Notes: generated from the letters alone by a model not told the origin. Positions 2,487 through 61,950 are shown, numbered from the stretch's first letter. The stretch: 64,000 nt of DNA from Betaproteobacteria bacterium (GCA_046343415.1 JBKDNL010000028.1:8103-72102), one strand, 5' to 3'. Numbers and translations are program-made.

Positions 2487-2947
2487 TCTTCGTGAGAGTG
2501 GATACTAACATTTTGCGGAGCGCTCCGCAATTTCTCCCAGGATGGCACCTTCAGTAGTTCGCGCATCTGCTTCACCGCATCGGCCACTTCCTTCTTGAAC
2601 TCGCGCCGGTTGCGGAACTTCAGGTCAAGCTCGACGTGCGGGATCGCCCACCCGTCGACCACGATGAACACCGCGCCCACGCCGCCCGGCTTGAAGCCGG
2701 CGTAGGCGAAATCCACGCGGCCGAACAGCGCCTTCTCGACCTTGCGCAGCTCGCGGGACATGAAGCCCTCCTTGGTCGACGGCAGGTACGACGGCCGCGC
2801 CCACTGCATGCGCAGCTTGCCCAGCGTCTCCAGTCGGCGGACGTGCGCACGACGACGGTCGAGCGCGGAGCCCTTGCGCAGCCTGCGGCGCCGGATGGCC
2901 CGCTGCACTGCGTAGAAGTTCGGTTCGTTGATGCCCGTCAGAGTCAT
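2487..2947 (-). CDS. hypothetical phage protein whose 3' end runs across the attachment site
   Basis: The start ATG 2945-2947 overlaps the integrase stop (ATGA). GC3-rich coding signal persists to about 2520. In the lysogen there is no stop until 1721, because the frame reads antisense through the tRNA. Confidence 0.45.
2513..2530 (+). terminator. 18-bp perfect palindrome TTGCGGAGCGCTCCGCAA followed by TTTCTCCC (weak terminator-like element after the tRNA)
   Basis: Perfect dyad read directly. The short stem and only a modest T-tract make the call weak. Confidence 0.3.
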
Positions 2948-3975
2948 TTGTTCGGCCTCACTTTCAACCCGCGTTGGCGGATGTAGATGTCGGTGGTGGT
3001 TGCCTTGCTGTGGCCCAGCAAGTTCTGCGCAGCGACGGTGCCCTCGGCCGCGGCCTTGTCGGTGCCGGCCTTCGCGCGCAGGTCACGGAACTGAAACTGC
3101 TTGATGTCGGCCGCGAGCTTCGGCAGTGCCGCCGCTGCAGCAGTGCGGGCGTCGTCGAAGCGATCCCGCAGCATGGTCTTGGTGAGCGGCTTGCCGTGCT
3201 CGTTGGTGAGCAGCGCCATCACGATCACCTTGCACGCGGCCTTGCGCTTGCGGCAGCGACCTATCACGGTCTTGAGCCGGCCCTCGACGACGATCCAGCG
3301 CACGGCGCCGGTCTTCTTCTGGTCGACGCCCAGGGCGCCGTCCTTGATGTCGCCCTCGCTCATCGTGAGCACGTCCTGGGGCCGCTGGCCGGTGAGATAG
3401 GCCAAGTCCATCGCGTCCTGCATCTCGGGGGCGGCGTGGTCGTACACGGCTCTGACCACTGCATCGCTAGCGTAGAACTTGCGCTGCGCCTTGCTGCCCT
3501 CGAACTTCACGCCCGCACAGGGGTTGGGCCGCGCGGTGTAGCCCTCGCGCCGCGCGAACTCGAAGATCGTCGACAGCGTGGCCTTGTCCCGTGCGGCCTG
3601 CACTTTGTGCTCGCGGTGCCGCGCACCGTACTGGTAGACGTGGGTGGACTCGATCTCGTCGAGCGGAGCGCCGTCGAAGAACGCCTGGAGCCGCTTGATC
3701 GCCAGCTTGTATTCGCGCTGAGTCTTCTCGGCTAGCGTGACCAGCTCGCGTGCCGTGTACTGCTCGACCACGTCCGCGAACGTGGTCTGTTTGGCGGCGG
3801 GCTTGCCCATCAGCTCCGACCACTTCTTCACCGCGAGCAGGTAGTCGCTGCCCAGCGGAATCTCCCGGCGGGGCCGCTCGGCGGTGTCGAAGTAGTAGAA
3901 GGTGCGGCCCGACTTCTGCACGCGTGCCCGCATGCGCACGGGCAGCGACAGATGGACGGTTGGCTTTCGCCCCAT
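2944..3975 (-). CDS. int: tyrosine recombinase / phage integrase
   Basis: 343 aa. The C-terminal catalytic region reads FRDLRAKAGTD...LLGHSKATTTDIYIRQRG (R..HxxR..Y type). It lies adjacent to the tRNA. Confidence 0.9.
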   Translation of the reverse strand: MGRKPTVHLSLPVRMRARVQKSGRTFYYFDTAERPRREIPLGSDYLLAVKKWSELMGKPAAKQTTFADVVEQYTARELVTLAEKTQREYKLAIKRLQAFFDGAPLDEIESTHVYQYGARHREHKVQAARDKATLSTIFEFARREGYTARPNPCAGVKFEGSKAQRKFYASDAVVRAVYDHAAPEMQDAMDLAYLTGQRPQDVLTMSEGDIKDGALGVDQKKTGAVRWIVVEGRLKTVIGRCRKRKAACKVIVMALLTNEHGKPLTKTMLRDRFDDARTAAAAALPKLAADIKQFQFRDLRAKAGTDKAAAEGTVAAQNLLGHSKATTTDIYIRQRGLKVRPNK

Positions 3976-5596: not shown

Positions 5597-5608
5597 CTAA
5601 CAGGTTAG
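5597..5608. promoter_or_regulatory. related palindrome CTAACAGGTTAG (early operon)
   Basis: It lies immediately upstream (minus strand) of the RBS and start at 5587 and overlaps the stop at 5605. Confidence 0.6.
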
Positions 5609-7976: not shown

Positions 7977-8042
7977 GTGACCTCCTGTTAGAATGGTGTT
8001 GCGGTTCTCCAAACGGAGAATTTCAGGCCAGCTCCCGCTGGC

Positions 8043-13073: not shown

Positions 13074-13723
13074 CGCTCTGCTCCTAGTAGGTTTGCCCAG
13101 GGGTTGATCTGGCGGGCGAGAAACACGCTCTCGCTTCGGCGCTGCTGACGCACCTTGTCCATGTGCCGGCGGACGGTGGCCTTGCGGTCGTGCTTGGGGC
13201 ACGGCACGTCGGGCTTGTCGCCGAGGGCGAAGACCGCCGCCATCCGGCCGCGCGTGCCGAAGCTGTTCTTCCAGCCGCACACGTAGATTTCCTTCGCCTT
13301 GCGCAGCCGGCGCACCGTCCGGTACACGGTGTCGTCCGGCACGCCAAGCAGGCTCGCGCAGTGCGGGGCGGTGAGGCGGCGGTGCTGCCGGAGCATTGCC
13401 CGGACTTCCAGCAGGTGCTTGTCCTTGGCGCCTGTCCTGCGGTTCTTCGGGTTGGGCTTCGGGGCGTCAACCCCCTTGCCCGCAGCAAACACCCGCACCC
13501 ACGGCGAGTTCGGCCGGGCGTTGCCGCGCTCCCACCGCGCGACGTACAGAAGGCCCCGCTGGTGCATCAGCCTGACGCTCGTGGTCAGTGCCCGCCGTCC
13601 GCTCCTGTCCATCAGCTTCGCCAGGACGTTTACACGCTGCGGGCCGTAGCTCAGCAGGCAGGCCAGGATCGCTCGACGCGCGGAGGTCATAACCCGGCGC
13701 TTCACAGTCGAATCAGTTGTCAT
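13070..13723 (-). CDS. putative DNA-binding protein with two winged-helix-like repeats
   Basis: 217 aa. Two similar modules are present (ILACLLSYGPQRVNVLAKLMDRS...VRVFAAG and VRAMLRQHRRLTAPHCASLLGVPDDTVYRTVRRLRK...AAVFALG). Confidence 0.5.
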   Translation of the reverse strand: MTTDSTVKRRVMTSARRAILACLLSYGPQRVNVLAKLMDRSGRRALTTSVRLMHQRGLLYVARWERGNARPNSPWVRVFAAGKGVDAPKPNPKNRRTGAKDKHLLEVRAMLRQHRRLTAPHCASLLGVPDDTVYRTVRRLRKAKEIYVCGWKNSFGTRGRMAAVFALGDKPDVPCPKHDRKATVRRHMDKVRQQRRSESVFLARQINPWANLLGAER

Positions 13724-15740: not shown

Positions 15741-18155
15741 TTATTCAGCGGCGAGGACAAATTCCTCGTCCGTCGCAGCCTCAGCCTCAGCCTCAGCCTC
15801 AGCCTCAGCCTCAGCCTCAGCCTCAGCCTCAGCCTCAGCCTCAGCCTCAGCCTCAGCCTCAGCCTCAGCCTCAGCCTCAGCCTCAGCCTCAGCCTCAGCC
15901 TGCGCCTGCGCCATGAGGGCAAGGCCCATCTCTGACGCAACCTCGGCGGCCAGCTCGTAGCAGAGCTTGTAGTTCTGGCACATGATCTTGGCGTGGTCAC
16001 TGTCCGCGTGCCAGTTGACAGCGCTGCCAGGGTGCATGACCAGCTCGCCGCTAATGATGCGGTTAGCGTTCACAAGCCCCGACTCCAGATAACTCGTCGC
16101 ATCGCGCATGAATCGGTCGTCGTGGGCCGAAATCTCGAAGTGGAAGCCGTCCAACCAACGCGGTCTGCTGTCTGGGCAAACGAAGGTGTCGGTGAACAGG
16201 CCGCAGCCAAGCGACCGCATCAGGCGCACCATCGAGTTGAAGACGCCCAGGCGGTTCGAGCAGCGCCGGAAGGAATGCTTCTTCAGCGCAGCTCTGAGCA
16301 GTGGGCGCCAGTAGTCGCTGTTCAGCGTCGGACTGCCGTTGTCGGACTCCCGGTAGTAGAAGCGCAGGCCGTAGCGGCTGTCCAAGATCAGATTGCGGGT
16401 GTAGTCGACCACGCCGTCGAGGGTCTCCGCCACCGCATGCACGCCCAACACCACCTTGCGCCCGCTCGGCGTGACGTGCACGGGCACGCCCGGCAGAGCA
16501 AACAGCTCCTGGTCGCGTGTGAGGCGGGCAAGGCGCACGAGGCGGTCCCGGAACGGCGCGAGATGCGCTGTGTGCACACGGATCGAATAGCCAGCTTCGG
16601 CCTCGCGATCCCACACGACCGCCCGCTCAGTGTCCGCCGACCGGACGGCAAGTTGCACGGTGAGGCCGGCTTCGTCGTACACAACGCGGCCCTCGGCGTC
16701 GAGCTTGACGGCGTATTCCATCTCCCACGCCTGGAAATACTGCTGCTGCTCGGTCGGGTACAGCTCGGCGTCCAAGCGCGAGTAGCCATACGACTCGCGA
16801 GTCTGCGGGTTGTCGACGGCTATGGCGCCGGACGCCCCGAACGTGGGCGTGTCGTCGCCGACCCACACCTGATGGCGTTTGCCGCTGTCGGCGACCCAGG
16901 CTTGGCGCACGAAGCCCGCCTCGGTCGCGGCTTTAGCGGTGGCGCGCTTGACTGTGCCCTCGTGCCACACATCGACCGTCTCCGTGACGAGGAGGTCGAA
17001 CTCGGCGCCAGTCAGGGCGCACGTACCTATCATCCCTTTGAACTCCTCCAGCCAATAGCGAGGGTCGTACACGAAGCCCCACCCGCTAGATGTGGAGATT
17101 TCGTTCGGGGATTTGTTGAGCGCGGAGCGAACTTTCGCCTTCTGCTCCGCAGAGAGCAGCCGCCACCACTCGCCCTCGGGCACGACGCCCCGCACATGAG
17201 ACTGGTCGTTGACCCCCTCCGGCCCGCTCGGCGGGTCGATGTACGGGAACAGTGCAACGCGCCGCAGGAAATCGTTCTCCGGGTGCTCGTCGAGCATGAT
17301 GCGCTTCAGGCGCGCGCCGGCCAGCCCTTTGAGCTTGAAGCCACGACGCTGCAGGCGCCGCGTCAGCGCCGAGTCGCCGTACACGCGCACGTACCGCTTG
17401 TCCTCGGGGTTATCGGGGTTGACGTAGCACAGGGCGCGAGCGTTGATCCGACCGTCGCCGTCGAACAGCACGGCCAGGGACATCTCGGGCGTCTCGGCGT
17501 ACACCCGAGCGGGGTGGTGCCCTTGCGTCTTGAAGTAATGAGCGGGCTTCGCCATGCAAGACTCAGGGCGCCCTTGCACGTAAGCGGCAGTGATGGCGTC
17601 GCCGACCAGGAACGTGACGTCGTCGCTCAGGTCCGAGCGGTGCTTGGCCTCGACGTCGCGGATGTAGTCGTCCGTGAGCACGAGACAGGTCTTGCGCAGG
17701 AACTTGCCGAGGCTCGTGCGCACCTGCCGGTCGCGCATGCCGTCGTCAACGGTCGGCGTGTAGGCGATCATGGTCTTGTCTTCGCCGTCGAGCGCGATGT
17801 GCGGCGCGCACTGGGCGACGCTGTCCACGAGCGACGCCCATTCCCACATGTCGTCGGTCAGCTCGTACACGCCATAGAAGGCGCGCAGCCACTCGCGGAC
17901 GAGCCACCACTGCGAGCCCGGAATCTTCGCGCCAACGCCGCCTTGGACGAGGTCGCGGCGCAGGGCAGGCCAGCGCCTGCCTGCGATCGCCTTGCGTAGC
18001 GGCTGCAGGGGGTGATCCAGAGTGTACTGGACGCGTTCGGCGCCCCAGTAATTTATGTTGTCCGGGTTCGCCTGCCGCAGCACTTCGGTGAACTGTTCAC
18101 GCGAGGTGATCTTCTGACGCAGCGCGTCTTGGAACTGCTCGTAGGTCATTGCCAT
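15741..18155 (-). CDS. large hypothetical early protein (804 aa) with C-terminal (Ala-Glu)21 tract
   Basis: The ORF has a GGAGGA RBS. No catalytic motif was recognised. The C-terminus reads AQAQ(AE)21 [11 protein letters not shown]. Confidence 0.7.
15776..15901. repeat. perfect hexanucleotide microsatellite (CAGCCT)21
   Basis: Read directly: 126 nt with no interruption. It encodes (AE)21 on the minus strand. Confidence 0.95.
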
Positions 18156-20924: not shown

Positions 20925-21428
20925 TTACAGGAAAGCAAGGGATTGGGCTCGGGCTTCGCCCAGGGTGAGAAAGAAGTGAATACCCGCTTGGCACGACATT
21001 TTGTTCAGGCTAAACGGCGTGCCCTGTGGGACGACCTCCTCCCCCGCGACGTAGCTGAACTCGCGGACGTAGTATGAGCAGGCCCAGTCCGCCGGCTCAC
21101 CGCGCACGGTCACAACCGAGTGCACAACCGCCTTGCTCGCACGCAGCTTTTCGAGGGGGCCGCGCCGCGTGCGGTGCTCGCCGAGGCGCCGGCTTTGGAG
21201 GCGCTGCGCTACGCCCCATCCTACGTAGATCATCGCGTCTGCGGGGATGGTGATGTTAGCGATGCCCCTTTCTTGCCCCGGTACCGCGTTGCGGGAGACA
21301 ACGACCGCCTTGAAGGCCCGCAGGTCACGGGCGACGGTGTAGAAGCGGCCCTCTATTCCGTGCGCGAAGTCGCCCTGCCCGCTACTCAAGTCCAGGTGGG
21401 CTTTCAGGTAATCAGCTAGCGTTTGCAT
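20925..21428 (-). CDS. hypothetical protein (C-terminal GIHFF motif)
   Basis: ORF 20925..21458. Start at Met11 (MQTLADYLK) after AGGAGAACGTCT. Confidence 0.55.
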   Translation of the reverse strand: MQTLADYLKAHLDLSSGQGDFAHGIEGRFYTVARDLRAFKAVVVSRNAVPGQERGIANITIPADAMIYVGWGVAQRLQSRRLGEHRTRRGPLEKLRASKAVVHSVVTVRGEPADWACSYYVREFSYVAGEEVVPQGTPFSLNKMSCQAGIHFFLTLGEARAQSLAFL

Positions 21429-21477
21429 AGACGTTCTCCTGCCCCGGCGACCTATCATCGCGGGGCTAGCGGGTTAG

Positions 21478-21903
21478 TTAGGCCCGGGGTTCAGCTTCTG
21501 CGCCCGGGGTGTAGATCAGGCCGTGCTTCTCGGCAACATCTGCCATAGCGCCCTCGAAGCGCTCCATCCCGTTGTCTGCGCTGTCGTCGTGGGCGACCTG
21601 CAATGCCTTGAGAAACCACCAGTCGTCCTCCGTCAGGGTCGGGTAGACCCGGTCCATCGTGGCCTTGAGCGCATGGCTGCGGCCGGTGCACGGGGGATAT
21701 GTAAACGTGTGCGCAACCAAGCCGCACGAGCCCCCCTCGATGTCCGGGTCGTACATATCGTCGGGGATGAGCACGCCCACGGCGCAGCGCTTGCCTTCGG
21801 CGGTGCGGTAGACGCACTCTCCACGGTCGTCGGTGGCAGGTCCCTGCTTGCGCAGGTGGTTCAGCACGGTGTCGAACACGTCTTGCCGGATGAACAGGCT
21901 CAT
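21478..21903 (-). CDS. hypothetical protein
   Basis: 141 aa. The start overlaps the upstream stop (ATGA). Confidence 0.6.
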   Translation of the reverse strand: MSLFIRQDVFDTVLNHLRKQGPATDDRGECVYRTAEGKRCAVGVLIPDDMYDPDIEGGSCGLVAHTFTYPPCTGRSHALKATMDRVYPTLTEDDWWFLKALQVAHDDSADNGMERFEGAMADVAEKHGLIYTPGAEAEPRA

Positions 21904-22175
21904 CGCGCCTCTCCCGTGATGACGACGGACTCACTGCGGCGTGCGTTGCGCACGATCTCGTAGTACCTGTCGGCCGGCTCGATGCCCCAAAAAACTGGAT
22001 TGGAGGCGCCGTCCTCAAAGATCAGCACGGCCCTTTCGGCGGGTCGGTGCGTGAACACCACCATCGCCAGCCCCTGGTGGCCGCCTAATTTCTCGCGCAC
22101 CACCAGCAGGGCGCCAGTGGCCGCGGCGCCGAAGCCGGCCAACTCGGGGCCGTCGATTTTCGTCTTGCAAGTCAT
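21900..22175 (-). CDS. hypothetical protein
   Basis: 91 aa. It is preceded by CTAACCTGTTAGGAGAGAAACG. Confidence 0.55.
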   Translation of the reverse strand: MTCKTKIDGPELAGFGAAATGALLVVREKLGGHQGLAMVVFTHRPAERAVLIFEDGASNPVFWGIEPADRYYEIVRNARRSESVVITGEAR

Positions 22176-22185
22176 CGTTTCTCTC

Positions 22186-22197
22186 CTAACAGGTTAG
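22186..22197. promoter_or_regulatory. related palindrome CTAACAGGTTAG (early operon)
   Basis: It lies immediately upstream (minus strand) of the RBS and start at 22175. Confidence 0.6.
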
Positions 22198-22205
22198 TGC
22201 GGGGC

Positions 22206-22451
22206 CTACCGCCACCGCGTCAGCTCATCAATCGCAGCCAGCACGACCAGCCCCACGAGCCACGCCAGTCCGACCAGGGTGAACACGAGCGCCGCACTGG
22301 CGGCGTACTGCATCAGACCGAACGTGATCAGCACGCCCACCAGCCAGACCATCGTGAGCAGGGCCAGCGTGCCCAGAATCACGCACACAACGTGAAAACC
22401 GAGTTCGTTATCGAGCAGCCTGTCCACGGCGGCACCTATCATATTTCGCAT
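22206..22451 (-). CDS. small polytopic membrane protein
   Basis: 81 aa with two or three hydrophobic helices. Confidence 0.55.
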   Translation of the reverse strand: MRNMIGAAVDRLLDNELGFHVVCVILGTLALLTMVWLVGVLITFGLMQYAASAALVFTLVGLAWLVGLVVLAAIDELTRWR

Positions 22452-22452
22452 G

Positions 22453-22944
22453 TCAGGCCCCCAGGACGTGCGCCGCTCGCTCGGCTAGCTGGTGCAGTTG
22501 ATACGGAAGGTGCGCCCTGCAGTGACTCGACCACAGCGTCGGTATCGGGTCGCCGGGGAACTTGGGCATGGCCTCGCGGATGTCGACGCTAGCTGTGGGC
22601 ATGCGCACGCCATCGAGCACGAGGATCGCGCGCCACTGCACGCCGCACGCGAGGTCGTCGGGCGTGAACCCGTTGCAGAACAGCACGAGGTCTTGCATGT
22701 CCATCTCGACCTTCGCGCCGTCGCCATCGGTCAGCGCTTCCCACGGCCCCTTGTAGCCGTCGCGCGTCTCGATGGTGAAGCGCACCTTGCGCATGTCCGG
22801 CCTGCGCGGGGTGAGTGCTTGCCGCAGGTCGATGGCCCTGCGGATCACGTCGGCGCGCTCATGTGCGATCTGCGCAGCGTTGGGCTTGGCACGCGGCTCC
22901 GGCTCAAGGGCCAGGGTGTCAACGTGCAGGATGTCGGCGAGCAT
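22453..22944 (-). CDS. hypothetical protein, first gene of the leftward early operon
   Basis: ORF 22453..23088. Start at Met49 (MLADILHVD) after GGAGAACCGCA. Upstream ORF codons cover the promoter. Confidence 0.55.
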   Translation of the reverse strand: MLADILHVDTLALEPEPRAKPNAAQIAHERADVIRRAIDLRQALTPRRPDMRKVRFTIETRDGYKGPWEALTDGDGAKVEMDMQDLVLFCNGFTPDDLACGVQWRAILVLDGVRMPTASVDIREAMPKFPGDPIPTLWSSHCRAHLPYQLHQLAERAAHVLGA

Positions 22945-22976
22945 TGCGGTTCTCCATGAAGTGATCTGTTGGGGGC

Positions 22977-23005
22977 GGACAACCCCGCGGGGTGCGGGTC
23001 TGTCC
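22977..23005 (-). repeat. GGACA...TGTCC stem-loop family, copy 6
   Basis: GGACAACCCCGC-GGGGT-GCGGGTCTGTCC. It lies in the leader of the early-left promoter, 33 nt upstream of the start at 22944. Confidence 0.75.
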
Positions 23006-23037
23006 GGGTTGTTGAGCGGGTTGTTGAGCGGGTTGAC
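23006..23037. repeat. direct repeats GGGTTGTTGAGC x2 plus partial GGGTTGAC between promoter and first gene (operator-like)
   Basis: Read directly at 23006-23017, 23018-23029 and 23030-23037. Confidence 0.8.
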
Positions 23038-23059
23038 GGATTTCCACACAACAGGGCTC

Positions 23060-23088
23060 ATTATATAACAAGTGATACAGAATGTCAA
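23060..23088 (-). promoter_or_regulatory. consensus sigma70 promoter TTGACA-17-TATAAT reading leftward (early-left promoter)
   Basis: On the minus strand, TTGACA (23088-23083), a 17-nt spacer, then TATAAT (23065-23060). It heads roughly 20 kb of co-oriented genes. Confidence 0.8.
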
Positions 23089-23551
23089 GCTAACAGGGTG
23101 ACATTATTCATGGATCATTAGCAGAGATTTGGGGGGTCGAAAACAGGCCCCGAATTGGTAAAAATCTCTAGCACTTCGTTGGCCCGGCTAGCGGCGCCAG
23201 TCTATGCATGTTTTGAGTGCGGCGCGCGCGGGGCGGGGCGGGGCGGCAACTATCATCGAGCGCGCGCGAGGCTGGCGGAAATAATAAAGCTAGCGTCGCA
23301 GAGAACGTGAGTCATGCAGACAAAGCACTTTCATAAATCGGGGGCTTTATCGAAGTTTTGTCTTTCGGCTCGCGGGGTTAGCGCGACTATTCTGCGACGG
23401 TATTGAATAAGCACTTTACCAATTTTAGAGAGGCGGGGTTACGGAGGCGTTGGTGTGCTAGACTAGCGCAGCGCGTCCGGGCACTCACTCGATTTTCCTT
23501 ATGCGCCTTATGAATTGGTAGATGTATTTCTTTAATAACACTAGGAAAGCC

Positions 23552-24376
23552 ATGCAGACCACAGACCCCTACACCCCACCCCTCGATGAGGGCTCGAAAC
23601 AGCTCGCCCAAGGCGTAATTCTGCATAAAGGTGGCGACCTGTCCCTGCAATTCAGCTACCGTCGCCGGCTCACGCCGTGGGAGCGGCGCCACGTCCTTGA
23701 TTGGGCGGCTGCCAACGGCCTCGAACCCGCTGAGCTAGTGCGGCGGATCAAAGACCCGAAAGGGTGCTGGCCTTCCCGCACGCTGCTAGCCCAGCCGGTC
23801 GAGGCCACGATGTACGTACTGGAGCGCGACGGCTACAACGGCGTGCCGCTAGCTGAGCACCTGCGCTCACTCGGCCTGACCCTGGCCGGCTTGCGCTACC
23901 GGGTCACCAAGCACTTCCGCCCGTCGCGCGACAAACTCGGCAACGTGGTTGTGTCGTGGACGCTTGACACTGCGCTAACCGTGCCCGCTAACAAGGAGGG
24001 ATCAGCCCGGCTAGCGACGGTGGCTGTGCGACCCGAGGCCAAAGACGCCCGCATCCGCGCGTTCGCGTTCGACGGCGTTGTGGATACGCTCAAGGGCCAC
24101 TGCGCGCGCATTGGGCTCAACTACAACACCTGCCTGAGCCGCATCTATGGCCGCACGGTCGGCGACGTGTTCTATCCCGGCATGTCAGTGCACGACGCGC
24201 TGCGTTACGGGCGCACGCGCCGCCCGCGCTGCGACCGGGGCAAGAAGCGGGCTAAGTACGTCCGCACGCCCGCGTCCAAGTTCTTCAGCGAGCCGACCAA
24301 GAAGGAGCTAGCTGCGCGCGCCAAGAAGGAGGAGGTTGACCGCAACCGAGCGCTTGATGTCGCGTGCGGTTCTTAG
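23552..24376 (+). CDS. hypothetical protein with three HTH-like repeats (possible DNA-binding protein)
   Basis: ORF 23522..24376. Start at Met11 after AGGAAAGCC. Repeated ...GL.xxxLxxRI/RV... modules are present (AANGLEPAELVRRIK; SLGLTLAGLRYRVTKH; RIGLNYNTCLSRIYGR...VHDALRYG). It has five CTA Leu codons. Confidence 0.55.
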   Translation: MQTTDPYTPPLDEGSKQLAQGVILHKGGDLSLQFSYRRRLTPWERRHVLDWAAANGLEPAELVRRIKDPKGCWPSRTLLAQPVEATMYVLERDGYNGVPLAEHLRSLGLTLAGLRYRVTKHFRPSRDKLGNVVVSWTLDTALTVPANKEGSARLATVAVRPEAKDARIRAFAFDGVVDTLKGHCARIGLNYNTCLSRIYGRTVGDVFYPGMSVHDALRYGRTRRPRCDRGKKRAKYVRTPASKFFSEPTKKELAARAKKEEVDRNRALDVACGS

Positions 24377-24405
24377 CACCTATCATCCACGCCGCTAGCC
24401 TCGCC

Positions 24406-24434
24406 GGACAAACCCGTGAAGCGCGGGAATGTCC
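24406..24434. repeat. GGACA...TGTCC stem-loop family, copy 7
   Basis: GGACAAACCCG-TGAAGCG-CGGGAATGTCC. It lies 30 nt after the stop of 23552..24376. Confidence 0.7.
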
Positions 24435-24500
24435 AGCGGGGCTAGCGGCGCGAACGGCGCGGCCGACAGTGAGCGCGTACTAACACGCTAACGATGGGCG

Positions 24501-24526
24501 AAAAAAAGCCCCGCACAAGGCGGGGC
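24501..24526 (-). terminator. Rho-independent terminator
   Basis: The minus strand reads GCCCCGC-CTTGT-GCGGGGC followed by TTTTTTT. It lies 17 nt after the stop of 24543..25316. Confidence 0.8.
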
Positions 24527-24542
24527 AAAGGGGCAAAGCGGG

Positions 24543-25316
24543 TTAGAGGGTTGCGGCTAGCGCGGCGGCTTTCTTGGGCGTGGCTTTGCGGAGGGCAGCC
24601 AGTGCGGCCTTGATCGCCTTCGCGTCATCGGTCGCCAACAGGTCACGCAACGCTTCGCGCGCTTCGTTTTTCAGCGCTGAGAGTTCCTCGCGCGCCTTGC
24701 CCTTTGCGGCCTTGTCGGCGGCCTCTCGTAACCGCTTGGCGTTGGTCGCAGCGGTTGCAGCCTCGTCGACCTTGCCGCTAGCAATCAACTCGGCCGCGCG
24801 CGCAGTCCATTGCTCGGGCGTGCCATCTGGCAGCGCCCGCGATGCGGCCTTGCGCTGCGCATCTTGCGCCTGACTGCGCGGAATGTCGCCTTGCAGCCGC
24901 GCGGCGCCGAGTGCGTCCTCGGAACGCGCGGCCTTCATTCTGCGCTCGAAGGCGTCCAGCGATTTATCGGACGGAACAAGCTTTTCAATTGCATCAGCAT
25001 CACGCACGTTGCCCCGCGCGGCATCATACCCGCGGCGCCATGCGGCCTGCATCACGCGGAAGCACGCGTAGTCGCCCTTGTTGCCCTCGCGCGCCATGAC
25101 CGGCGCAAAGAGCGTGGCAAAGGCGAGAAGGGCCGCCTCACCCTCATACGCGCTAGCGCCATCCGCGAGCAAAGACGCGGCCACGTTTGGCGCAATGGTG
25201 GGCGCAATGGTGGGCTCAATGGTGGGCGAAGGCAGCACGGGAGCCGGAGCCGGAGCCGCTTTCGGCTTCTTGGCCCTTGGCGCGGCGGCGGTAGCAAGAG
25301 CAGTAGCATTAGCCAT
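24543..25316 (-). CDS. Ala-rich hypothetical protein in a self-contained transcription unit
   Basis: 257 aa. It has its own promoter (25365-25392), an AAGGA RBS and its own terminator (24501-24526). It is oriented opposite to both rightward neighbours. Confidence 0.65.
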   Translation of the reverse strand: MANATALATAAAPRAKKPKAAPAPAPVLPSPTIEPTIAPTIAPNVAASLLADGASAYEGEAALLAFATLFAPVMAREGNKGDYACFRVMQAAWRRGYDAARGNVRDADAIEKLVPSDKSLDAFERRMKAARSEDALGAARLQGDIPRSQAQDAQRKAASRALPDGTPEQWTARAAELIASGKVDEAATAATNAKRLREAADKAAKGKAREELSALKNEAREALRDLLATDDAKAIKAALAALRKATPKKAAALAATL

Positions 25317-25364
25317 GATTAATCCTTGGAGTAAGACGCTAGCGTTATTGCTAGCGTGGAACAG

Positions 25365-25392
25365 ATTTTACACTAACAGGCTTACTCGTCAA
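25365..25392 (-). promoter_or_regulatory. sigma70-type promoter TTGACG-16-TAAAAT reading leftward
   Basis: On the minus strand, TTGACG (25392-25387), spacer AGTAAGCCTGTTAGTG, then TAAAAT (25370-25365). It is nearly identical in layout to the promoter at 18937-18965. Confidence 0.7.
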
Positions 25393-25405
25393 GTTTCTAG
25401 ACGGC

Positions 25406-25434
25406 GGACAAGTCCGCGCGGCGCGGCGTTGTCC
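25406..25434. repeat. GGACA...TGTCC stem-loop family, copy 8
   Basis: GGACAAGTCCGCG-CGG-CGCGGCGTTGTCC. It lies just outside the -35 of the promoter at 25365-25392. Confidence 0.65.
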
Positions 25435-25609
25435 GGGCTGGCACGGATAGCGGGGCTAGCCCCCACCCCCGGGGCATGGACAAACTCATGCGGCCCCCTG
25501 GCCCCCCTTATCTCTGCGCCAAAATGGAAAACCCACTTTTAGACACTGTAAAAACTGATACACGGCCCATACCGCTCGAAGCCCCGCTAGCCCCGCAAGC
25601 TTCATCGTG

Positions 25610-25621
25610 CTAACATGTAAG
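25610..25621. promoter_or_regulatory. 12-bp palindrome family CTAAC-RT-GTWAG, copy 0
   Basis: CTAACATGTAAG at the head of the rightward genes. Confidence 0.6.
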
Positions 25622-25642
25622 CTCATCACTATGGAGCCCATC

Positions 25643-25792
25643 ATGGAATACGTCATCGCTGCGCTGATCGTCGCTGCCGTCGCCTTCGTGGCGTTCCGCA
25701 AGCGCAAGTCGAGCAACCCGTTCGAGGGCAAGGATGTCGTCGACGGCGGGGCTGACGACCGCGACAACCGCGGCCACAAAGACCTGTTCTAA
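25643..25792 (+). CDS. small membrane protein
   Basis: Within ORF 25607..25792. ATG 25643 is preceded by GGAG at 6 nt. One TM helix (YVIAALIVAAVAFVAF) is followed by RKRK. Confidence 0.45.
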   Translation: MEYVIAALIVAAVAFVAFRKRKSSNPFEGKDVVDGGADDRDNRGHKDLF

Positions 25793-25795
25793 CCG

Positions 25796-26146
25796 ATGGG
25801 GAGCCCCGACGCTGCAACGCTAGCCAAGCAGCTCAAACAAAAGCTGCTTGAGGGGGCTCCTCACGTCGCTGAAGACCTTCTGACGCTTGTCCGCCAGTCG
25901 GAGAACCCGAAGGACTACATCGACTACCTGCAGCTCACATCCAGGCTAAACGGCCTGGAGCCGAAGCCCGACCAGAACGCCAACCTGCCCACCTTCAACA
26001 TCACGTTCCAGATGGGTGCGGTGCAGGCCGAGGTCAGTGCAGAGGTCATCGAGCACGCCTCTGCAGAGCAGCCGAAGCTAGCGGAGCCAGAAACGCAGGC
26101 GCCGGTAGTGGAGCCGTTTGTGCTCGACATCCAACCCATCGACTAG
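25796..26146 (+). CDS. hypothetical protein
   Basis: 116 aa with good GC3. It is closely coupled to the upstream stop. Confidence 0.55.
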   Translation: MGSPDAATLAKQLKQKLLEGAPHVAEDLLTLVRQSENPKDYIDYLQLTSRLNGLEPKPDQNANLPTFNITFQMGAVQAEVSAEVIEHASAEQPKLAEPETQAPVVEPFVLDIQPID

Positions 26147-26154
26147 GACTCACC

Positions 26155-26283
26155 ATGATGCCGTTTCAGCCGAAAGGCAAACCGCCGATGCCCAAAGGCA
26201 AAGGCCCCGTCGCCCCCGCCCCCGGAAAGAAAGCCCCTGGCGGCAAGCCGCCGATGCGCAAAGCCGCCGGCCGCGGCCGGTAA
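26155..26283 (+). CDS. very basic Lys/Pro/Gly-rich 42-aa peptide (uncertain)
   Basis: Hand translation: MMPFQPKGKPPMPKGKGPVAPAPGKKAPGGKPPMRKAAGRGR. It is below the ORF-track cutoff. Confidence 0.3.
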   Translation: MMPFQPKGKPPMPKGKGPVAPAPGKKAPGGKPPMRKAAGRGR

Positions 26284-26414
26284 TCAACGAGCACCACAGT
26301 ACGCCGGGCCTGCTGGACAGGCCGCAAGGTCGAAGGTGTGATCCGGGCAACCGGGGACTGGCCCGCAAGGGCTGCCTGACAGCCGGCGTGCTGCCTAGAG
26401 TTAGCAGGTAAGCC

Positions 26415-26831
26415 ATGCTTGCGATCCGTGAAGTCGACCCGCTCAAGTTCGGCGCCGTGCTGGAGTCCATGCACGCGGCCTGTTTTCCCGAAGACCAGAT
26501 GCCCGACTTCAAGCGGGGCTGGTGGTGGGTCGGGTTCGAGCGCGGGGAGCCCGCCGCGTTTTGCGGAATGCGCCACGTCGAGTCCTGGGATCGCACGGCA
26601 TACCTGAAACGTGCAGGGGTGCTGCGCGCGTACCGGGGCAGGGGTTACCAGCGGCGGCTAATCCGCGTGCGCCTGCAGAAGGCCAGAGCCCTCGGGTACG
26701 AGCGCGTCGTTACCGACACCACCGACAACCCCGCTAGCGCCAACAACCTCATGGAGTGCGGATTCCGGCTGTACACGCCGCATCAGCCGTGGGGGTATCG
26801 CCGCACTTTGTATTGGATTCGGACGCTATGA
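26415..26831 (+). CDS. GNAT family N-acetyltransferase
   Basis: 138 aa. VLRAYRGRGYQRRLI (acetyl-CoA binding R/Q-x-x-G-x-G/A type) and ...NLMECGFRLY. Confidence 0.7.
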   Translation: MLAIREVDPLKFGAVLESMHAACFPEDQMPDFKRGWWWVGFERGEPAAFCGMRHVESWDRTAYLKRAGVLRAYRGRGYQRRLIRVRLQKARALGYERVVTDTTDNPASANNLMECGFRLYTPHQPWGYRRTLYWIRTL

Positions 26832-43496: not shown

Positions 43497-43510
43497 GGGG
43501 CTAGCGCTCA

Positions 43511-43522
43511 CTAACGTGTTAG
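43511..43522. promoter_or_regulatory. 12-bp palindrome family, copy 4
   Basis: CTAACGTGTTAG is preceded by GCTAGCGCTCA and followed by CCATAATCCATAATCC. Confidence 0.7.
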
Positions 43523-43557
43523 TGCCATAATCCATAATCCAACCTGAAGGAGCGCAT

Positions 43558-49535: not shown

Positions 49536-50023
49536 GACTGCGCAACATCGAGCGCGGGCTGTGGATCGCGCTCATCGGCGTCAGCGGGCTGTTCTGCTTC
49601 AGCCTGTACGCGGAAAACGCGAAGCTCAAGCTCGAAATCGCCGAGCGTGAGAACGACATCATCATGCATATCGCCGAGAGCGAAGCCAAGCTGCGCCAGC
49701 AGGAAGCCGCGGCGGTAAAGCGCGTAAACCAACTGGAGATCGAACATGCCGCGCAATCTCAAGATCGTGACCGCGCTCTGTCTGCTGCTCTTGGCCGGCT
49801 GCGCGACGCAGAAGCCCGTGCCGCCCGTAAGCCCGCCGCGGATGCCCCCGCCACCTGCCGCGATTACGGCGCCAGTCCAGACCAACTTTCTGTGTCTGAC
49901 CGAGAAATTCTTGTACGGCTCGGAGCAGCAGCGGACGAAGTTGCTGGACGACTTGCGCTCTGTCGCGCCTACGTCGATACCTTGCGAGAGCTAGCACACA
50001 CTAACATGTTAGACGTACAATAG
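49520..50023 (+). CDS. i-spanin (Rz-like)
   Basis: 167 aa with an N-terminal TM helix and a coiled-coil periplasmic domain. It follows the endolysin. Confidence 0.7.
   Translation: MLGPVGLRNIERGLWIALIGVSGLFCFSLYAENAKLKLEIAERENDIIMHIAESEAKLRQQEAAAVKRVNQLEIEHAAQSQDRDRALSAALGRLRDAEARAARKPAADAPATCRDYGASPDQLSVSDREILVRLGAAADEVAGRLALCRAYVDTLRELAHTNMLDVQ
49746..49994 (+). CDS. o-spanin (Rz1-like lipoprotein) embedded in the i-spanin gene
   Basis: 82 aa in the +1 frame inside 49520..50023. It has a lipobox LLLAGC and a Pro-rich mature part. Confidence 0.7.
   Translation: MPRNLKIVTALCLLLLAGCATQKPVPPVSPPRMPPPPAAITAPVQTNFLCLTEKFLYGSEQQRTKLLDDLRSVAPTSIPCES
50001..50012. promoter_or_regulatory. 12-bp palindrome family, copy 6
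   Basis: CTAACATGTTAG is preceded by GCTAGCACACA and followed by ACGTACAAT. Confidence 0.7.
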
Positions 50024-50026
50024 GCG

Positions 50027-58258: not shown

Positions 58259-58919
58259 GGTACAGGTCGTTGACCGCCTGCGGGGTCAGCGAGCACTGCT
58301 GGTCGTCCCAGGCGTTCGCGGCGATGTCGTAGCGGCCGATCGTGCGCGTGACCCCCGAGTTGAAGGCGAAGGGGAGCGACGTGCCGGTCGTGAAGACCGG
58401 CCGGGAAACCAGCCCCGCCACGAGGCGGCTTGCGTCATCGTCGATGATCCGCAAACGAGAGATCGGTAAGTCACTCCAGCGCTGGGCTAGTTCGCCCCCA
58501 AGGACGCGCAGGGCCGCGTTTACTTTTTGGATGAGGATGCTGTCAATGTTTCGTTCAACGACTTCGTCCGGCACCTCGATTACCTCACACGCCCGCCAGA
58601 GCGTTCCGGGCAGGCTCGCGTTCACGCTGTACCGCTCGGTGAAGCGCGCGATGGTGTCCAACGTGGAGAATTGCTTCTCGATGCTCTCGATCCGCAGGCA
58701 GTCGCGCAGGAAGTGGGCACGGGGCGCGGATGTCACGCGCACAGGGACGTCGAGCAGCGTGCACACCCTGTCCGCGGAGTCGACCGACGCTGGAGGGCGC
58801 ATGCTCATGCTGTTGACGCACTCGTAGAACGGGCGCGGCTTGACGTACAGCCGCCGGGGCGCTCGCCCCTCAGCCTGCGCTCGCGCTATTTCCCGCCCGA
58901 CTTGTATCAGTAGACTCAT
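58128..58919 (-). CDS. hypothetical protein (start uncertain)
   Basis: 263-aa ORF. Codon quality is good in the middle and poor in the first ~13 and last ~40 codons. The 3' end overlaps the convergent 1488-aa gene by 131 nt. Confidence 0.45.
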   Translation of the reverse strand: MSLLIQVGREIARAQAEGRAPRRLYVKPRPFYECVNSMSMRPPASVDSADRVCTLLDVPVRVTSAPRAHFLRDCLRIESIEKQFSTLDTIARFTERYSVNASLPGTLWRACEVIEVPDEVVERNIDSILIQKVNAALRVLGGELAQRWSDLPISRLRIIDDDASRLVAGLVSRPVFTTGTSLPFAFNSGVTRTIGRYDIAANAWDDQQCSLTPQAVNDLYLTDLGLPRSVQVDLARLHLEDADGYPAWFAAPPAAGPAAPAEG

Positions 58920-61900
58920 TGCGGCTCCTTTGGAGAGATACGACGTTGTGCGGGATTTGCCCCGTCTCGTCTTCGATAAACAGGCGGCCCTCGTCGATCT
59001 TGATGGCGGGGCCTTGCACGGTGCCCAGCGTCGTGCCCTTGGTGATGGTCACGTTCGCCTTGGTGTCGCCGCGCAGGGTAATCGGGCGCAGCAGTTCGTT
59101 GCGCTTCAGCTCGTTCATCAGCTCGATGTAGCTGAAGCTGTTCTCGCGTGCCCACTCCTTCATGGAGTCGACTAACAGGTAAACGTGGCGGCTGGTGGTG
59201 ATGCGCCGCCCGGCCCACGGGGCCTTCAGCGTGGTGACGTTCTCCACCGGCAGCAGGCGGCCAACGGCGGGCGCCTCGTCGCTGGTGTTGATGATGTTTG
59301 GCGCGAGGTCGGAGATCATCTTGCGGGCCATCTCCACCGGGCTGCGGCTGACGGTGGCAGCGAAGTCCTGCGCGGCGCGCGCCGCGGCGGCGTATTCGCG
59401 GATCAGCACGTTGCGGTCGAAGAACGCGACGCCCAGGGCCTTGAGCAGGTCGAACGCGGCCAGGGCGCAGGCCATGCCCCGCTGCAGGAACCGCTGGCGC
59501 TGCGTGGCGCCGGGCACGACGCCAGCGGCCTCGGCGTAGCGCTTCTGCATCACGTTGCGCACCCACTCGACGCCGCGCTGGACGATCAGCAGGTGCAGCA
59601 GCGCACCGATGGCGCCGTGGTTGGGCGTCATCAGCTCAGCGAGCTTCTCCTTGTACGTGATCTGCTCGCCCTCGGAGAGGTCGGCGAACTCGCAGTTCAG
59701 CTCCAACAGGCGCATCTGCAGCGCGTCGGAGGACTTCTGGAACGCCGCCAGCATCTCCCGCTGCGGGATGTTGGTCGACACGCAGCCGACCAGCGCCCAG
59801 GTGTGCGCCTCGCGCGGGTTGCCATTGCGGTCGGCCCTGCGCCGGTCGGTGCCGTTCGCCAGCCGGTTGATCATGGCGCCGACTTCCTGCGCCGTGTTGC
59901 CCGTGACCTCGTCGCCGAAGAACGGCAGCGTGCCCAGCGCAGCGATGAAGCCGGACTGGTAGTTGGCCGTGGCGTCTTGGTTGGCGGCCGACAGCACCAC
60001 GTTCTCGGGGTTGCCGAACGCGGCCGCGGCGGCCTTCTGCATCGAGGTCTTGCCCTTGCCCGACCCGCTGCTGTAGAGCGACACGGTCAGGCCCGCAGCG
60101 GGGAGCTGCTCGCCCGGCACGAACGCGCCGTCCGCGACAAACAGCAGCAGGGGGCTGGCGATGGACAGCATGATGGCGAGCTGGGCGACCTCGTAGCCCG
60201 GCTTCGTGTAGTACATGCGGTAGAACTCAGCCTGCTTCTGCGCCGCCGGGATGACGTGCGACTTCCATACGGAGGGCTCCCACCGGCCCGCGGGCGAGTA
60301 CGGCAAGGGCGCGATGTTGAACAGGGTGCGGTAGCCCTTGAGCTTGTTGCCAAGCATGGCCTCCTCGATGCGGCCATCGGGGAAGATGACGTAGCGGCCG
60401 TGCGCGCAGATGAGCTTGGAGTCGCGGTCGTCCGTCTGGTACTGCACGCCGAAGCGGTTGCGCACGACGATGCGTGACGCCACCTCTTTGACCCGGTTGA
60501 ATTGCTGGTTCATAAAGTCGTGTACCCGTTGAGTGGCTGCAGCGGTGACGGACATCGACGTGATGCCCTTGTCGGTGAGGAACTGCAGCAGCGTTTGCTT
60601 GGCGCCGAGCAGCTTGGTCGGCATGTCGTAGTGGCTGCGCTTGCCGTCCTTGAACAGCACAAGGCCGACCATCGCGCCGTCGTTCTCGTCGCGCCCCGCG
60701 CCCGTCCAGGTTTCGAGCCAGAACACGTCGTTGGACAGGACTTCCCACTTGTAGACGGTCGTCTTGCCGTCCTCGCCGTCCTGCTCGACCGCAGCGCGAT
60801 ACCATAGCCGGTTGACGCCCTTGTCGTCCTTCTCGATCTTGTAGTCGCGGCCCAGGTCAGGGAACGGGATCGGCACGTCTTTCGGCACGGGCGCGGGCTC
60901 GGCCTTGGGTTTCTTGTCCTCGGGGAGCTGCTCGACCTGCTTGTCGGTCAGTCGCCCCAGGGAGAGCGGGGTCGACACCTTTCCGCGATAAACGCAAGAC
61001 TGGCAAGCCTCTGCGTTAAAGCGCTCAAAAGTGCCGCACAGAGTCGGGCCAGTGCCCTCGTAGCGGTCGAACTTGCGCTGCGTCTCGTCGTAGCTGTAGC
61101 CGTCATAGCCGCCACTCCACTCGTGCGCGAGGTCTGCCCCCTCGGTGCTGAACTTGACGATGCCCAACATCGCCCGCCACTCGGGCTCGGGCACGTCGCC
61201 CTTGAGCACGGCGATGCGGTTCAGGGCGGCGCACTTGCTCGCGGCCTTCACCGCCGACGACGGCGACGGCTCCCACAGGGTCAGCGCGTCGTTGACGTTA
61301 AGCTTGGCCCGGCCGGCGGGCGCGGACAAACCCGCGTCTTGCGGGGCTGTCCCGACGATCTCCTGCAGTGCGGCGAGCGACCAGCGCACGCCGGTGTCCT
61401 TGAGCAGCACCACCGTCTGCCCGTTCTTGTGCTTGGCGCCCAGCGGCCGCAGCACGCGCGCCGAGTCGGTGGTGCACGCCGGGTCGGCCTTCAGGCCGTG
61501 GTGCTGCGCTAGCTTGCCCAGGCCCACGGCCACGGAGCGCCACGCGTCGGCGGCCACGTCCTCGGTGAGGGCGAAGTACGCGTGCAGGCCGGCGCCACTG
61601 CTCACGATCAGCGAGGGGCGCAGGTCGACCTTGGCGCTGAACTCCAGCAGCGCCGCGACCCCATCCCGCTGCGTCGGGTACGCCGACTCGGGGTGCTTGG
61701 CGAACTTGTCGGCGCCGCAGTCGATGTCGAGGTAGAAGCACCGTTTGGCCCGCACCGTGGACTGCTTGCGCTCCCCCGCCGAGAATGTGGCCAGCGCGAA
61801 GTACCACGAGTGCTCGACGTTCACGCGCTCGGTCAGCTCGACCAGCTTGGCGAGGCTGCCACACCACAGATGCTGCTTGCGAGGCACCGAGAACAAGGCG

Positions 61901-61950
61901 TAATCGCCGCCTTCGGGCAGCAGCGCCCGGTAGAAATCCAGAAGCGTCAT
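58870..61950 (-). CDS. bifunctional primase-polymerase / SF3 (D5-like) helicase
   Basis: 1026 aa. The N-terminal prim-pol motifs are CFYLDIDCG and SSGAGLHAYF. Walker A is SSGSGKGKTS, in the C-terminal half. Confidence 0.8.
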   Translation of the reverse strand: MTLLDFYRALLPEGGDYALFSVPRKQHLWCGSLAKLVELTERVNVEHSWYFALATFSAGERKQSTVRAKRCFYLDIDCGADKFAKHPESAYPTQRDGVAALLEFSAKVDLRPSLIVSSGAGLHAYFALTEDVAADAWRSVAVGLGKLAQHHGLKADPACTTDSARVLRPLGAKHKNGQTVVLLKDTGVRWSLAALQEIVGTAPQDAGLSAPAGRAKLNVNDALTLWEPSPSSAVKAASKCAALNRIAVLKGDVPEPEWRAMLGIVKFSTEGADLAHEWSGGYDGYSYDETQRKFDRYEGTGPTLCGTFERFNAEACQSCVYRGKVSTPLSLGRLTDKQVEQLPEDKKPKAEPAPVPKDVPIPFPDLGRDYKIEKDDKGVNRLWYRAAVEQDGEDGKTTVYKWEVLSNDVFWLETWTGAGRDENDGAMVGLVLFKDGKRSHYDMPTKLLGAKQTLLQFLTDKGITSMSVTAAATQRVHDFMNQQFNRVKEVASRIVVRNRFGVQYQTDDRDSKLICAHGRYVIFPDGRIEEAMLGNKLKGYRTLFNIAPLPYSPAGRWEPSVWKSHVIPAAQKQAEFYRMYYTKPGYEVAQLAIMLSIASPLLLFVADGAFVPGEQLPAAGLTVSLYSSGSGKGKTSMQKAAAAAFGNPENVVLSAANQDATANYQSGFIAALGTLPFFGDEVTGNTAQEVGAMINRLANGTDRRRADRNGNPREAHTWALVGCVSTNIPQREMLAAFQKSSDALQMRLLELNCEFADLSEGEQITYKEKLAELMTPNHGAIGALLHLLIVQRGVEWVRNVMQKRYAEAAGVVPGATQRQRFLQRGMACALAAFDLLKALGVAFFDRNVLIREYAAAARAAQDFAATVSRSPVEMARKMISDLAPNIINTSDEAPAVGRLLPVENVTTLKAPWAGRRITTSRHVYLLVDSMKEWARENSFSYIELMNELKRNELLRPITLRGDTKANVTITKGTTLGTVQGPAIKIDEGRLFIEDETGQIPHNVVSLQRSRNESTDTSRAGNSASAG

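Follow-up and report, generated by a model that had tools for sequence, protein, structure and literature searches.

A stretch of 64,000 nucleotides from a betaproteobacterial metagenome-assembled genome (MAG; Betaproteobacteria bacterium, GCA_046343415.1, JBKDNL010000028.1:8103-72102), hereafter called the window, was analyzed with respect to a dense island of the palindromic hexamer GCTAGC. The window was found to be occupied by a temperate prophage of approximately 64 kb, HMO-2011-like and with an SU10-type portal, which is integrated beside tRNA-Thr (2411-2486), carries its integrase gene at 2944..3975 and ends on the right approximately 2.5 kb beyond the window. Its genes are directed leftward up to 23088 and rightward from 23552. 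The prophage encodes a family A DNA polymerase, a P4-alpha-like primase-helicase of the DUF927 type (58870..61950), a PolB-exonuclease-like protein, the terminase large subunit and the portal. The nearest cultured phages by portal sequence are distant (Rhizobium phage RHph_TM3_14A with 39.5% identity, roseophage CRP, HMO-2011 and pelagiphages). A search of a phage collection at the DNA level gave no match, and no close cultured relative was found.

The features of the island are listed in Table 1. Judged from the positions of promoters and genes, the island extends 1.65 kb into the early operon and 1.2 kb into the late operon, which starts near 25640, and includes the divergent control region and two convergent single-gene units between them. 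The gene at 23552..24376 is called central below, and its convergent neighbour is called AK257.

Table 1. Coordinates of the GCTAGC island, its promoters and genes, and two outlying sites (positions within the window)
Feature	Coordinates	Strand	Remarks
GCTAGC island	21415..26738		22 exact sites; divergent control region, two convergent single-gene units, operon starts
Sites 21415, 21465, 22484, 22588	21415..22593		First 1.65 kb of leftward early operon
P_L promoter	23060..23088	-	Strong, sigma-70-type, perfect TTGACA-17-TATAAT; drives leftward early operon
Sites 23187, 23289	23187..23294		Divergent intergenic region; split variant GCTAG-A-CTAGC at 23457-23467
Central gene	23552..24376	+	274 amino acids; four sites (23785, 23848, 24010, 24307); candidate binder
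Long inverted repeat	24394..24446		GCTAGCCYCGCYGGACA-N19-TGTCCRGCGRGGCTAGC, directly 3' of central gene; two GCTAGC form its base
Intrinsic terminator of AK257 gene	24508..24526	-	Clean terminator
AK257 gene	24543..25316	-	257 amino acids, monocistronic; three sites (24556, 24777, 25152); second candidate trans factor
P_AK promoter	25392..25365	-	Strong, sigma-70-type TTGACG-16-TAAAAT; drives 24543..25316 alone
P_AK region with site pair 25350, 25338	25338..25392	-	12 bp apart, at ~+3 to +20 of P_AK; operator-like position
Sites 25455, 25586	25455..25591		Flank the conserved, presumed late-operon promoter region
Sites 25819, 26077, 26733	25819..26738		First 1.2 kb of rightward late operon; 26733 lies in GNAT gene and is the right island edge
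Outlying site 43500	43500..43532	+	GCTAGC, 6 nt, palindrome TAACGTGTTAG, CATAAT; site at -35 position of phage-type late promoter
Outlying site 49990	49990..50025	+	GCTAGC, 6 nt, TAACATGTTAG, TACAAT; equal spacing

Enrichment of GCTAGC and selection on the DNA word

Thirty exact copies of GCTAGC were found in the window, and 22 of these were located in the island, which comprises 5,324 bp or 8% of the window (mean spacing 253 bp). The density was 4.1 per kb within the island versus 0.14 per kb outside it. The coordinates of all 22 island sites had been listed correctly in an earlier reading made from the sequence alone (the sequence-only reading). The eight sites outside the island start at 43500, 49990 and 56825, which that reading had also given correctly for the late region, and at 3466, 3731, 7836, 8395 and 61508, which were missing from its list.

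When all hexamers were compared between the island and the rest of the window, GCTAGC ranked first (22 versus 8; Poisson p ~1e-24), and the runners-up CGCTAG, CTAGCC and AGCTAG were overlapping neighbours of GCTAGC itself. Markov models trained on the island itself predicted 2.2 (first-order) or 4.3 (second-order) copies instead of the 22 observed. Dinucleotide shuffles of the whole window gave 16.7±3.7 copies with a maximum of 25, compared with 30 observed. The tetramer CTAG occurs 67 times in the 64 kb, which is approximately one third of the composition-based expectation, and 30 of the 67 copies belong to GCTAGC. Chance and base composition are excluded as the source of the island. The only stronger signal in an unbiased scan of local words, an apparent word island of GCCTCAGC at 11-16 kb, was rejected since it proved to be a simple (GCCTCA)n tandem repeat at 15778-15900; GCTAGC is thus the top dispersed island. 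The hexanucleotide repeat is perfect, consists of approximately 20 units and encodes an Ala-Glu repeat in an 804-aa gene at 15741..18155 (minus strand).

Thirteen of the 22 island sites are coding (3.3 per kb) and nine are intergenic (6.7 per kb); only 25% of the island is intergenic, yet it harbors 9/22 of the sites. Fourteen of the 22 lie between genes or no more than 8% away from a gene end. When synonymous codons were shuffled within each of the 12 local genes, 1.78±1.21 coding copies were obtained (1000 shuffles, maximum 7), compared with the 13 observed. Coding GCTAGC can be read in only two frames because the third frame produces a TAG stop codon: nine sites were found as xxG-CTA-GCx (Leu-Ala, with the rare CTA codon) and four as GCT-AGC (Ala-Ser). 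The Leu-Ala dipeptide was encoded as G-CTA-GC in 9/26 cases (35%) in the island genes versus 3/133 (2%) in the 32 other prophage genes (Fisher p=3.5e-6), and Ala-Ser was encoded as GCT-AGC in 4/11 cases versus 3/99 elsewhere in the prophage (p=0.002). The Leu-Ala bias was observed independently in two related phages described below (8/20 versus 2/41 in L005; 4/13 versus 1/44 in L006). Considering the codon shuffles together with the biased coding of Leu-Ala and Ala-Ser, it can be concluded that selection acts on the DNA word and not on the protein, as had been proposed from the sequence alone.

The surroundings of the hexamer were studied using 80 unique sites, i.e., 160 half-flanks. Counted outward, G was present at +4 in 70% of the half-flanks, C at +5 in 50% and C at +3 in 48%, while A at +1 was found in only 4%; no information was found beyond approximately ±5 from the hexamer. 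On the basis of these preferences, the full site may be described as GC-N3-GCTAGC-N3-GC, a quasi-palindrome of 14-16 bp. In the island, 15/22 sites extend to GCTAGCNNNGC on at least one strand, in agreement with the earlier estimate of about two thirds. The G at +4 was found at 28/45 sites on the side facing upstream with respect to transcription and at 31/45 on the side facing downstream, and the codon positions concerned differ between the two sides. Because the preference is equal on both sides, the symmetry of the site belongs to duplex DNA rather than to the transcript or the codon phase. No orientation bias of the GCTAGCG 7-mer with transcription was seen by eye among the four sites of the P_L operon.

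Two of the eight outlying sites lie exactly 6 nt upstream of the palindrome TAAC-RT-GTTAG, which is followed by a -10-like box (Table 1), and the 43500-type arrangement was found at the homologous place in the L005 phage (L028 9267). The palindrome is a separate promoter-associated motif and is also present in relatives lacking the island. Since no -10-like box was found at a fixed distance from the GCTAGC sites, GCTAGC is not a general promoter element. Literature searches on GCTAGC in a phage or methylome context and on the TAACRTGTTA motif yielded nothing relevant.

The wider form of this palindrome, (C)TAAC-NN-GTTA(G), has 10-12 bp and stands at gene junctions at 5598, 22187, 29020, 34018, 43512 and 50002 as well as in L002, L003 and L019, usually with a -10-like TAnAAT following after 1-3 nt. 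The half-site TGTTAG abuts the -10 box of P_AK, and TTGTTA abuts that of P_L. Island-less relatives contain 7-9 copies per 13-21 kb, and the motif looks like a phage-specific promoter or regulator site of the wider group.

Conservation of the island and of the proteins encoded within it

Syntenic contigs of related phages were reached through homologues of the central protein, apart from L054, which was reached through a pattern scan. GCTAGC was found to be dense at the syntenic locus in eight related lineages. L006, with 52% identity to the central protein, carries 14 copies over 5.1 kb and none in the 20.7 kb outside, and in L005 (46%), 18 copies fall within 6.5 kb and three within the remaining 14 kb. 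Ten copies in 2.5 kb were counted in L014 (43%), seven in 1.6 kb in L015 (34%; 58% GC), eight in 3.9 kb followed by none in 3.6 kb in L016 (33%), and six in 1.2 kb in L018 (30%). L054, with a terminase 58% identical and a GC content of 50%, has nine copies less than 1.2 kb from the terminase gene, on its upstream side; the following 8.7 kb contain no copy. The word was thus present at high density in every lineage down to 30% central-protein identity, with the exception of L031 and L034 (28-31%).

In the three fully covered genomes, the island spans 5.1-5.5 kb and its edges are alike, the left one approximately 1.5-2 kb into the early operon and the right one in or just before the GNAT gene. 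Approximately half of the sites are at homologous positions in close relatives: 22484 is conserved in L005 and L006, 21415 in L006, and 25819 and 26077 in L001, L005 and L006, while L006 keeps one of the two P_AK sites together with a decayed copy. Within the central gene, a single alignment column is common to three lineages. All other sites in this gene occupy different columns; what is kept is the number and density of sites, while their positions turn over. Comparison with related phages, which like codon-preserving shuffles had been suggested as a check in the sequence-only reading, left the finding standing, as did the shuffles: the word, its place and its extent are kept.

The terminase relatives without the local gene module (53-64% identity; L002, L003, L019 from a Thiobacillus MAG and L020 from a Pigmentiphaga MAG) have no island, and none is present in the closest cultured relative, RHph_TM3_14A. 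Scans of genomes and metagenomes with the terminase and central-protein alignments returned nothing or island-less relatives only. When viral contigs were scanned for three closely spaced copies of GCTAGC, mostly unrelated contigs were returned, with L054 as the sole true relative; the top match (L058, IMG/VR, 323 kb), with 22 copies in 2 kb, proved to be a 63-bp coding tandem repeat of an unrelated large virus. A changed word, GCTACC, was considered for L031 and was rejected, its mild over-representation (7 versus 0.9 expected) being unconvincing.

The inverted repeat that follows the central gene is the best-conserved non-coding element of the island and is better conserved than the adjoining central protein. 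As RNA, it has a folding energy of -88.7 kcal/mol (z=-7.5). Pairs of GCTAGC flank a conserved hairpin after the central gene in 6/9 lineages, and in L018, where the stem sequence is wholly different, GCTAGC still stands on both sides. In L006, the site after the central gene has expanded to a short tandem array, (GCTAGCGGCGCAGCGGG)n, with three extra GCTAGC copies (10788-10850). The divergent control region of RHph_TM3_14A also contains a hairpin, GCTAGCGG-CTAACC-CCGCTAGC (L035, 18154-18175), shortly before its first rightward gene.

The family of the central protein is small, with 19 representatives among 1.8 billion proteins, and accompanies the island in seven lineages. Its alignment reveals three tandem modules resembling a helix-turn-helix (HTH), with the pattern G-x-x-T-L-x-E-H-C-x-R-L-G-L-x-Y-x-T-V-x-x-R; a beta-hairpin precedes each of them. 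The protein was modelled confidently by AlphaFold (predicted local distance difference test, pLDDT, 82). In the BFVD viral structure library, the model resembles homing endonucleases of the HNH, GIY-YIG and HTH types, the similarity lying in the modules with which these proteins bind DNA (best E=6e-4). Weak, sub-threshold Pfam matches of family members to several HTH families were also found. The protein could be assigned to no family with Pfam, PHROGs, NCBIfam or PADLOC, and no nuclease motif or domain was detected in it. Against the PDB, a sequence-profile search gave nothing, and a fold search gave no match with E<0.001 and only weak ones to AP2, I-TevI and RacA.

The central protein is only 43-52% identical in relatives whose neighbouring proteins are 88-94% identical. 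The divergent segment is a hypervariable cassette (23089..24367) composed of the central gene and 460 bp upstream of it: in all relatives, similarity stops at 23088, the edge of the P_L -35 box, and resumes at 24368, with flanks that are approximately 90% identical. Such divergence is typical of an immunity determinant, and the cassette behaves like an exchangeable immunity module. AK257, an Ala/Lys-rich, all-helical protein, is conserved at 45-89%, i.e., better than the central protein, and likewise co-occurs with the island; it has only three homologues, and its AlphaFold model is poor (pLDDT 58).

Other repeats of the control region and neighbouring genes

Several further repeats were observed in and around the control region. 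A hairpin of the form GGACA-(GC-rich inner stem)-TGTCC is present in three copies, at 22977-23005 in the P_L leader, at 24406-24434 after the central gene and at 25406-25434 just upstream of the P_AK -35 box. These hairpins are conserved in relatives, often beside GCTAGC, and may act as U-less terminators or as sites for proteins. Tandem GGGTTGTTGAGC repeats were also found in the P_L operon leader (23007-23040), and CCCTGTT boxes flank the -35 and -10 boxes of P_L. An 8-mer, CTATCATC, mostly within (C)ACCTATCATC, was found at 17027, 19008, 20631, 21452, 23250 and 24380, with a variant at 22436. All copies are on the plus strand within 7.4 kb of the leftward early region, several of them at gene junctions, and L005, L006 and L014 share the copy at 24380.

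Among the neighbouring genes, a nucleotide-metabolism cluster was recognized at 5018-5587, 6746-7423 and 7404-8012, encoding a deoxynucleoside monophosphate phosphatase-like protein, a PD-(D/E)XK nuclease and the N-terminal domain of a MazZ-type dATP/dGTP diphosphohydrolase. In some phages, such enzymes accompany base replacement or manipulation of the nucleotide pool; neither PurZ nor another modification enzyme was seen here. Three open reading frames (ORFs) of the early operon, at 9367-9603, 6067-6291 and 5832-6077, encode a Tad2-like anti-Thoeris protein (E=2e-22), a TraR/DksA-type zinc finger and a small protein with weak HNH matches. Between the small late genes and the GNAT gene, a conserved 42-aa ORF (26155-26283) encodes a hyper-basic Pro/Lys/Gly peptide (MMPFQPKGKPPMPKGKGPVAPAPGKKAPGGKPPMRKAAGRGR). 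The double winged-helix protein encoded at 13070-13723, another candidate binder of the sequence-only reading, also evolves rapidly, with 38% identity in L006, where its neighbours are approximately 80% identical.

Possible readers of the island and comparison with known systems

It may well be, although our confidence stays somewhat short of even, that the island is a cis-acting array of approximately 22 sites for a two-fold symmetric, sequence-specific DNA-binding protein controlling the lysis-lysogeny domain. This reading is favored because the 14-16-bp site is dyad-symmetric, is present in about 20 copies, is confined to the control domain, includes an operator-like pair and turns over in position at constant density, and because the sites are denser in non-coding DNA and spill into the promoter-proximal part of each operon. 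The operator-like pair (25338 and 25350) had been pointed out from the sequence alone, and it indeed lies between a sigma-70-like -10 box (25370..25365) and the start codon of 24543..25316. A promoter-overlapping operator arrangement of the lambda type is found only for these two sites; the other 20 are not so placed.

In such a system, the array would mark a domain made up of the divergent promoter region, the pair of convergent single-gene units and, in the early and late operons, the 1-1.7 kb next to the promoter, and the bound protein would control transcription of this whole domain. It could occlude promoters, for example through the pair at P_AK, block elongation just downstream of promoters, or bridge sites into a higher-order complex. 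The extra sites beside late promoters may tie late transcription to the same factor. We infer that a protein occupies the sites and that its effect is repressive, repression by occlusion, roadblock or bridging being the most likely effect; the direction of regulation, whether repression or activation, is pure conjecture. A bolder version, which we consider rather unlikely, is a clade-wide, "chromatin-like" control of the prophage, in which a dedicated reader, perhaps a nuclease-less descendant of homing-endonuclease modules, would act on every promoter of the domain simultaneously by silencing or insulating it, unlike operator repressors and stoperators.

The central multi-HTH protein is the most likely candidate binder, albeit a doubtful one, and the Ala/Lys-rich AK257 or an unseen factor would come next. 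The proposal of the sequence-only reading that the product of 23552..24376 binds the sites is plausible as far as DNA binding is concerned, given the three HTH-like modules, the homing-endonuclease-like model and the association of the gene with the island. The role of binder fared less well: because the homologues in L031 and L034 occur without GCTAGC, the central protein cannot be regarded as the proven binder.

Several observations weigh against an array read by a symmetric regulator. The one-off variants of the hexamer noted in the sequence-only reading are present at the positions it gave, yet taken together, one-mismatch variants occur no more often than expected (35 versus 36), and such an all-or-none core is more typical of the recognition word of an enzyme than of a motif read by a transcription factor. 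No helical phasing was found between neighbouring sites (Rayleigh p=0.27). The contigs of L031 and L034 that lack GCTAGC are 1.3-1.7 kb long and encode central homologues (28-31% identity), while L054 has the island and no detectable central-protein homologue in the 2 kb available. The rapid divergence of the central protein contrasts with the invariance of the word, an asymmetric site would be the more natural target of a three-module protein, and no protein encoded here matches a family known to read GCTAGC.

Besides an operator array, packaging, a centromere-like function and methylation gating had been put forward from the sequence; the operator-like pair was borne out, and none of these roles is singled out by the data. 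According to one alternative, which we judge improbable, GCTAGC is the target of an enzyme, either a methyltransferase of the host or the phage or an NheI-type restriction-modification system, and the island is epigenetically gated, its methylation state following replication or infection serving to time transcription, packaging or immunity in the manner of the GATC clusters at oriC and P1 pac. An exact 6-bp palindrome without enriched near-variants has the look of an enzyme word; it is also invariant across hosts and from 50 to 65% GC in genomes that otherwise strongly avoid CTAG, and NheI itself comes from a betaproteobacterium. However, no DNA methyltransferase domain was found by scans and precomputed Pfam annotation in approximately 60 prophage proteins, including those of the right arm beyond the window, and the flank preferences reach ±7-8 from the dyad, which a 6-bp enzyme would not impose. 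Both results weaken the methylation-gated role, and the island, being 5.3 kb wide, is not the tight cluster, of a few hundred bp at most, that gating would suggest. This width and the shifting positions are also unlike a pac site or iterons, which bears on a slightly less probable alternative, namely that the sites serve DNA metabolism as a packaging-recognition region beside the terminase or as origin or enhancer repeats for the primase-helicase. The island does end less than 1 kb from the terminase large-subunit gene in every relative and abuts it in L016 and L054; no small terminase was identified, the central protein has a DNA-binding architecture, and the phage encodes a DUF927 primase-helicase, the P4 counterpart of which binds to short repeats located at ori and, 4.5 kb from there, at crr. 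Nevertheless, known pac sites and iterons are compact and fixed in position, whereas the sites studied here are spread across 5 kb to the left and right of a divergent promoter, shift in position between relatives, are palindromes rather than direct repeats and have outlying copies at late promoters. The centromere-like role lost ground, as neither a ParA nor a ParB domain was found in the prophage proteins examined.

It is still less probable that the sites are targets for cutting, nicking or recombination, at which a homing-endonuclease-like central protein or a partner nuclease would promote exchange of the immunity cassette. Such exchange would fit the match of the central model to homing endonucleases, the swapping of 23089..24367 between otherwise 90%-identical genomes with a sharp break at 23088 and the other boundary, 24368, only 26 bp from a site, and the position of 14/22 sites between genes or close to gene ends. 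The left breakpoint, however, falls on the -35 box of a promoter and on a GCTAAC variant rather than a true site, most sites are away from mosaic boundaries, and the central protein has no recognizable nuclease motif or domain. The least probable alternative is a role in RNA, in which self-complementary GCUAGC would pair within or between transcripts, or would be read by an RNA-binding protein or RNase, and would influence the folding or decay of early transcripts. The two copies at the base of the very stable hairpin after the central gene, the preservation of this arrangement with a different stem in L018 and the similar hairpin in the RHph_TM3_14A control region are in line with this role, but the flank preference is symmetric regarding the direction of transcription, most sites have no nearby partner, and sites 23187, 23289 and 25455 are in promoter regions that are probably not transcribed.

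Arrays of many sites for one regulator are known from a few model phages, and the pattern described here, with approximately four copies per kb across a control domain of 5 kb that has sharp boundaries, is a clear signature of selection on the number of sites and not their position, which is seldom seen at such a scale in a phage; the word reappears at new positions even in lineages whose central protein is down to 30% identity. If the array is read by a protein, it would represent a novel regulatory module of a betaproteobacterial prophage group that is uncultured (HMO-2011-like, with an SU10-type portal), and GCTAGC density would be a simple sequence marker for the control regions of this group. 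If the reader is an enzyme instead, the island would provide a new example of a prophage region under epigenetic gating.

Among known systems, P1 pac and the GATC clusters of oriC share with the island an exact short palindrome crowded near packaging genes. P1 pac is approximately 160 bp long and dependent on Dam methylation; the island array has 30 times this width, the prophage proteins scanned yielded no methyltransferase, and the flanks (+1, +4 and +5) are constrained. Unlike iteron origins of the P4 ori/crr type, the repeats of which are direct, close and positionally conserved, the island sites are palindromic and dispersed, and their positions are non-homologous between relatives. The P1 C1 operators, the phiC31 conserved inverted repeats and the SPbeta repeated element resemble the island in that many copies of one repressor-type site are distributed over several transcription units; these elements are 16-17 bp or longer, intergenic, genome-wide and positionally conserved, whereas the island word has an invariant 6-bp core, is regional and turns over in position. 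The OB sites of KorB (RK2), the ParB-parS clusters and the matS sites of MatP are 13-16-bp palindromes in many copies, partly within genes, where the bound protein bridges or spreads and is able to repress distant promoters. The island resembles them as a set of 22 copies of a 14-16-bp quasi-palindrome, 13 of them coding, that marks a domain. It differs in its 5-kb scale within an integrated prophage rather than a replicon or macrodomain, and no ParB, KorB or MatP domain or ParA partner was found in the prophage proteins scanned with Pfam, PHROG and NCBIfam.

In Cluster A mycobacteriophages (L5 with gp71, Bxb1 and TipsytheTRex), more than 20 copies of an operator/stoperator are believed to shut down transcription in the lysogen at the stages of initiation and elongation; these stoperators are asymmetric 13-mers bound by a monomer, follow the direction of transcription in their orientation and occupy short intergenic gaps genome-wide (PMC9283540). 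The island sites differ from them in being dyad-symmetric and without orientation, in the concentration of 22/30 copies within 5.3 kb and in the location of 13/22 inside genes by means of synonymous codons. With a short word present in more than 20 copies in a temperate phage, both at promoters and downstream of them, the Cluster A stoperators are the nearest functional analogue of the GCTAGC island.

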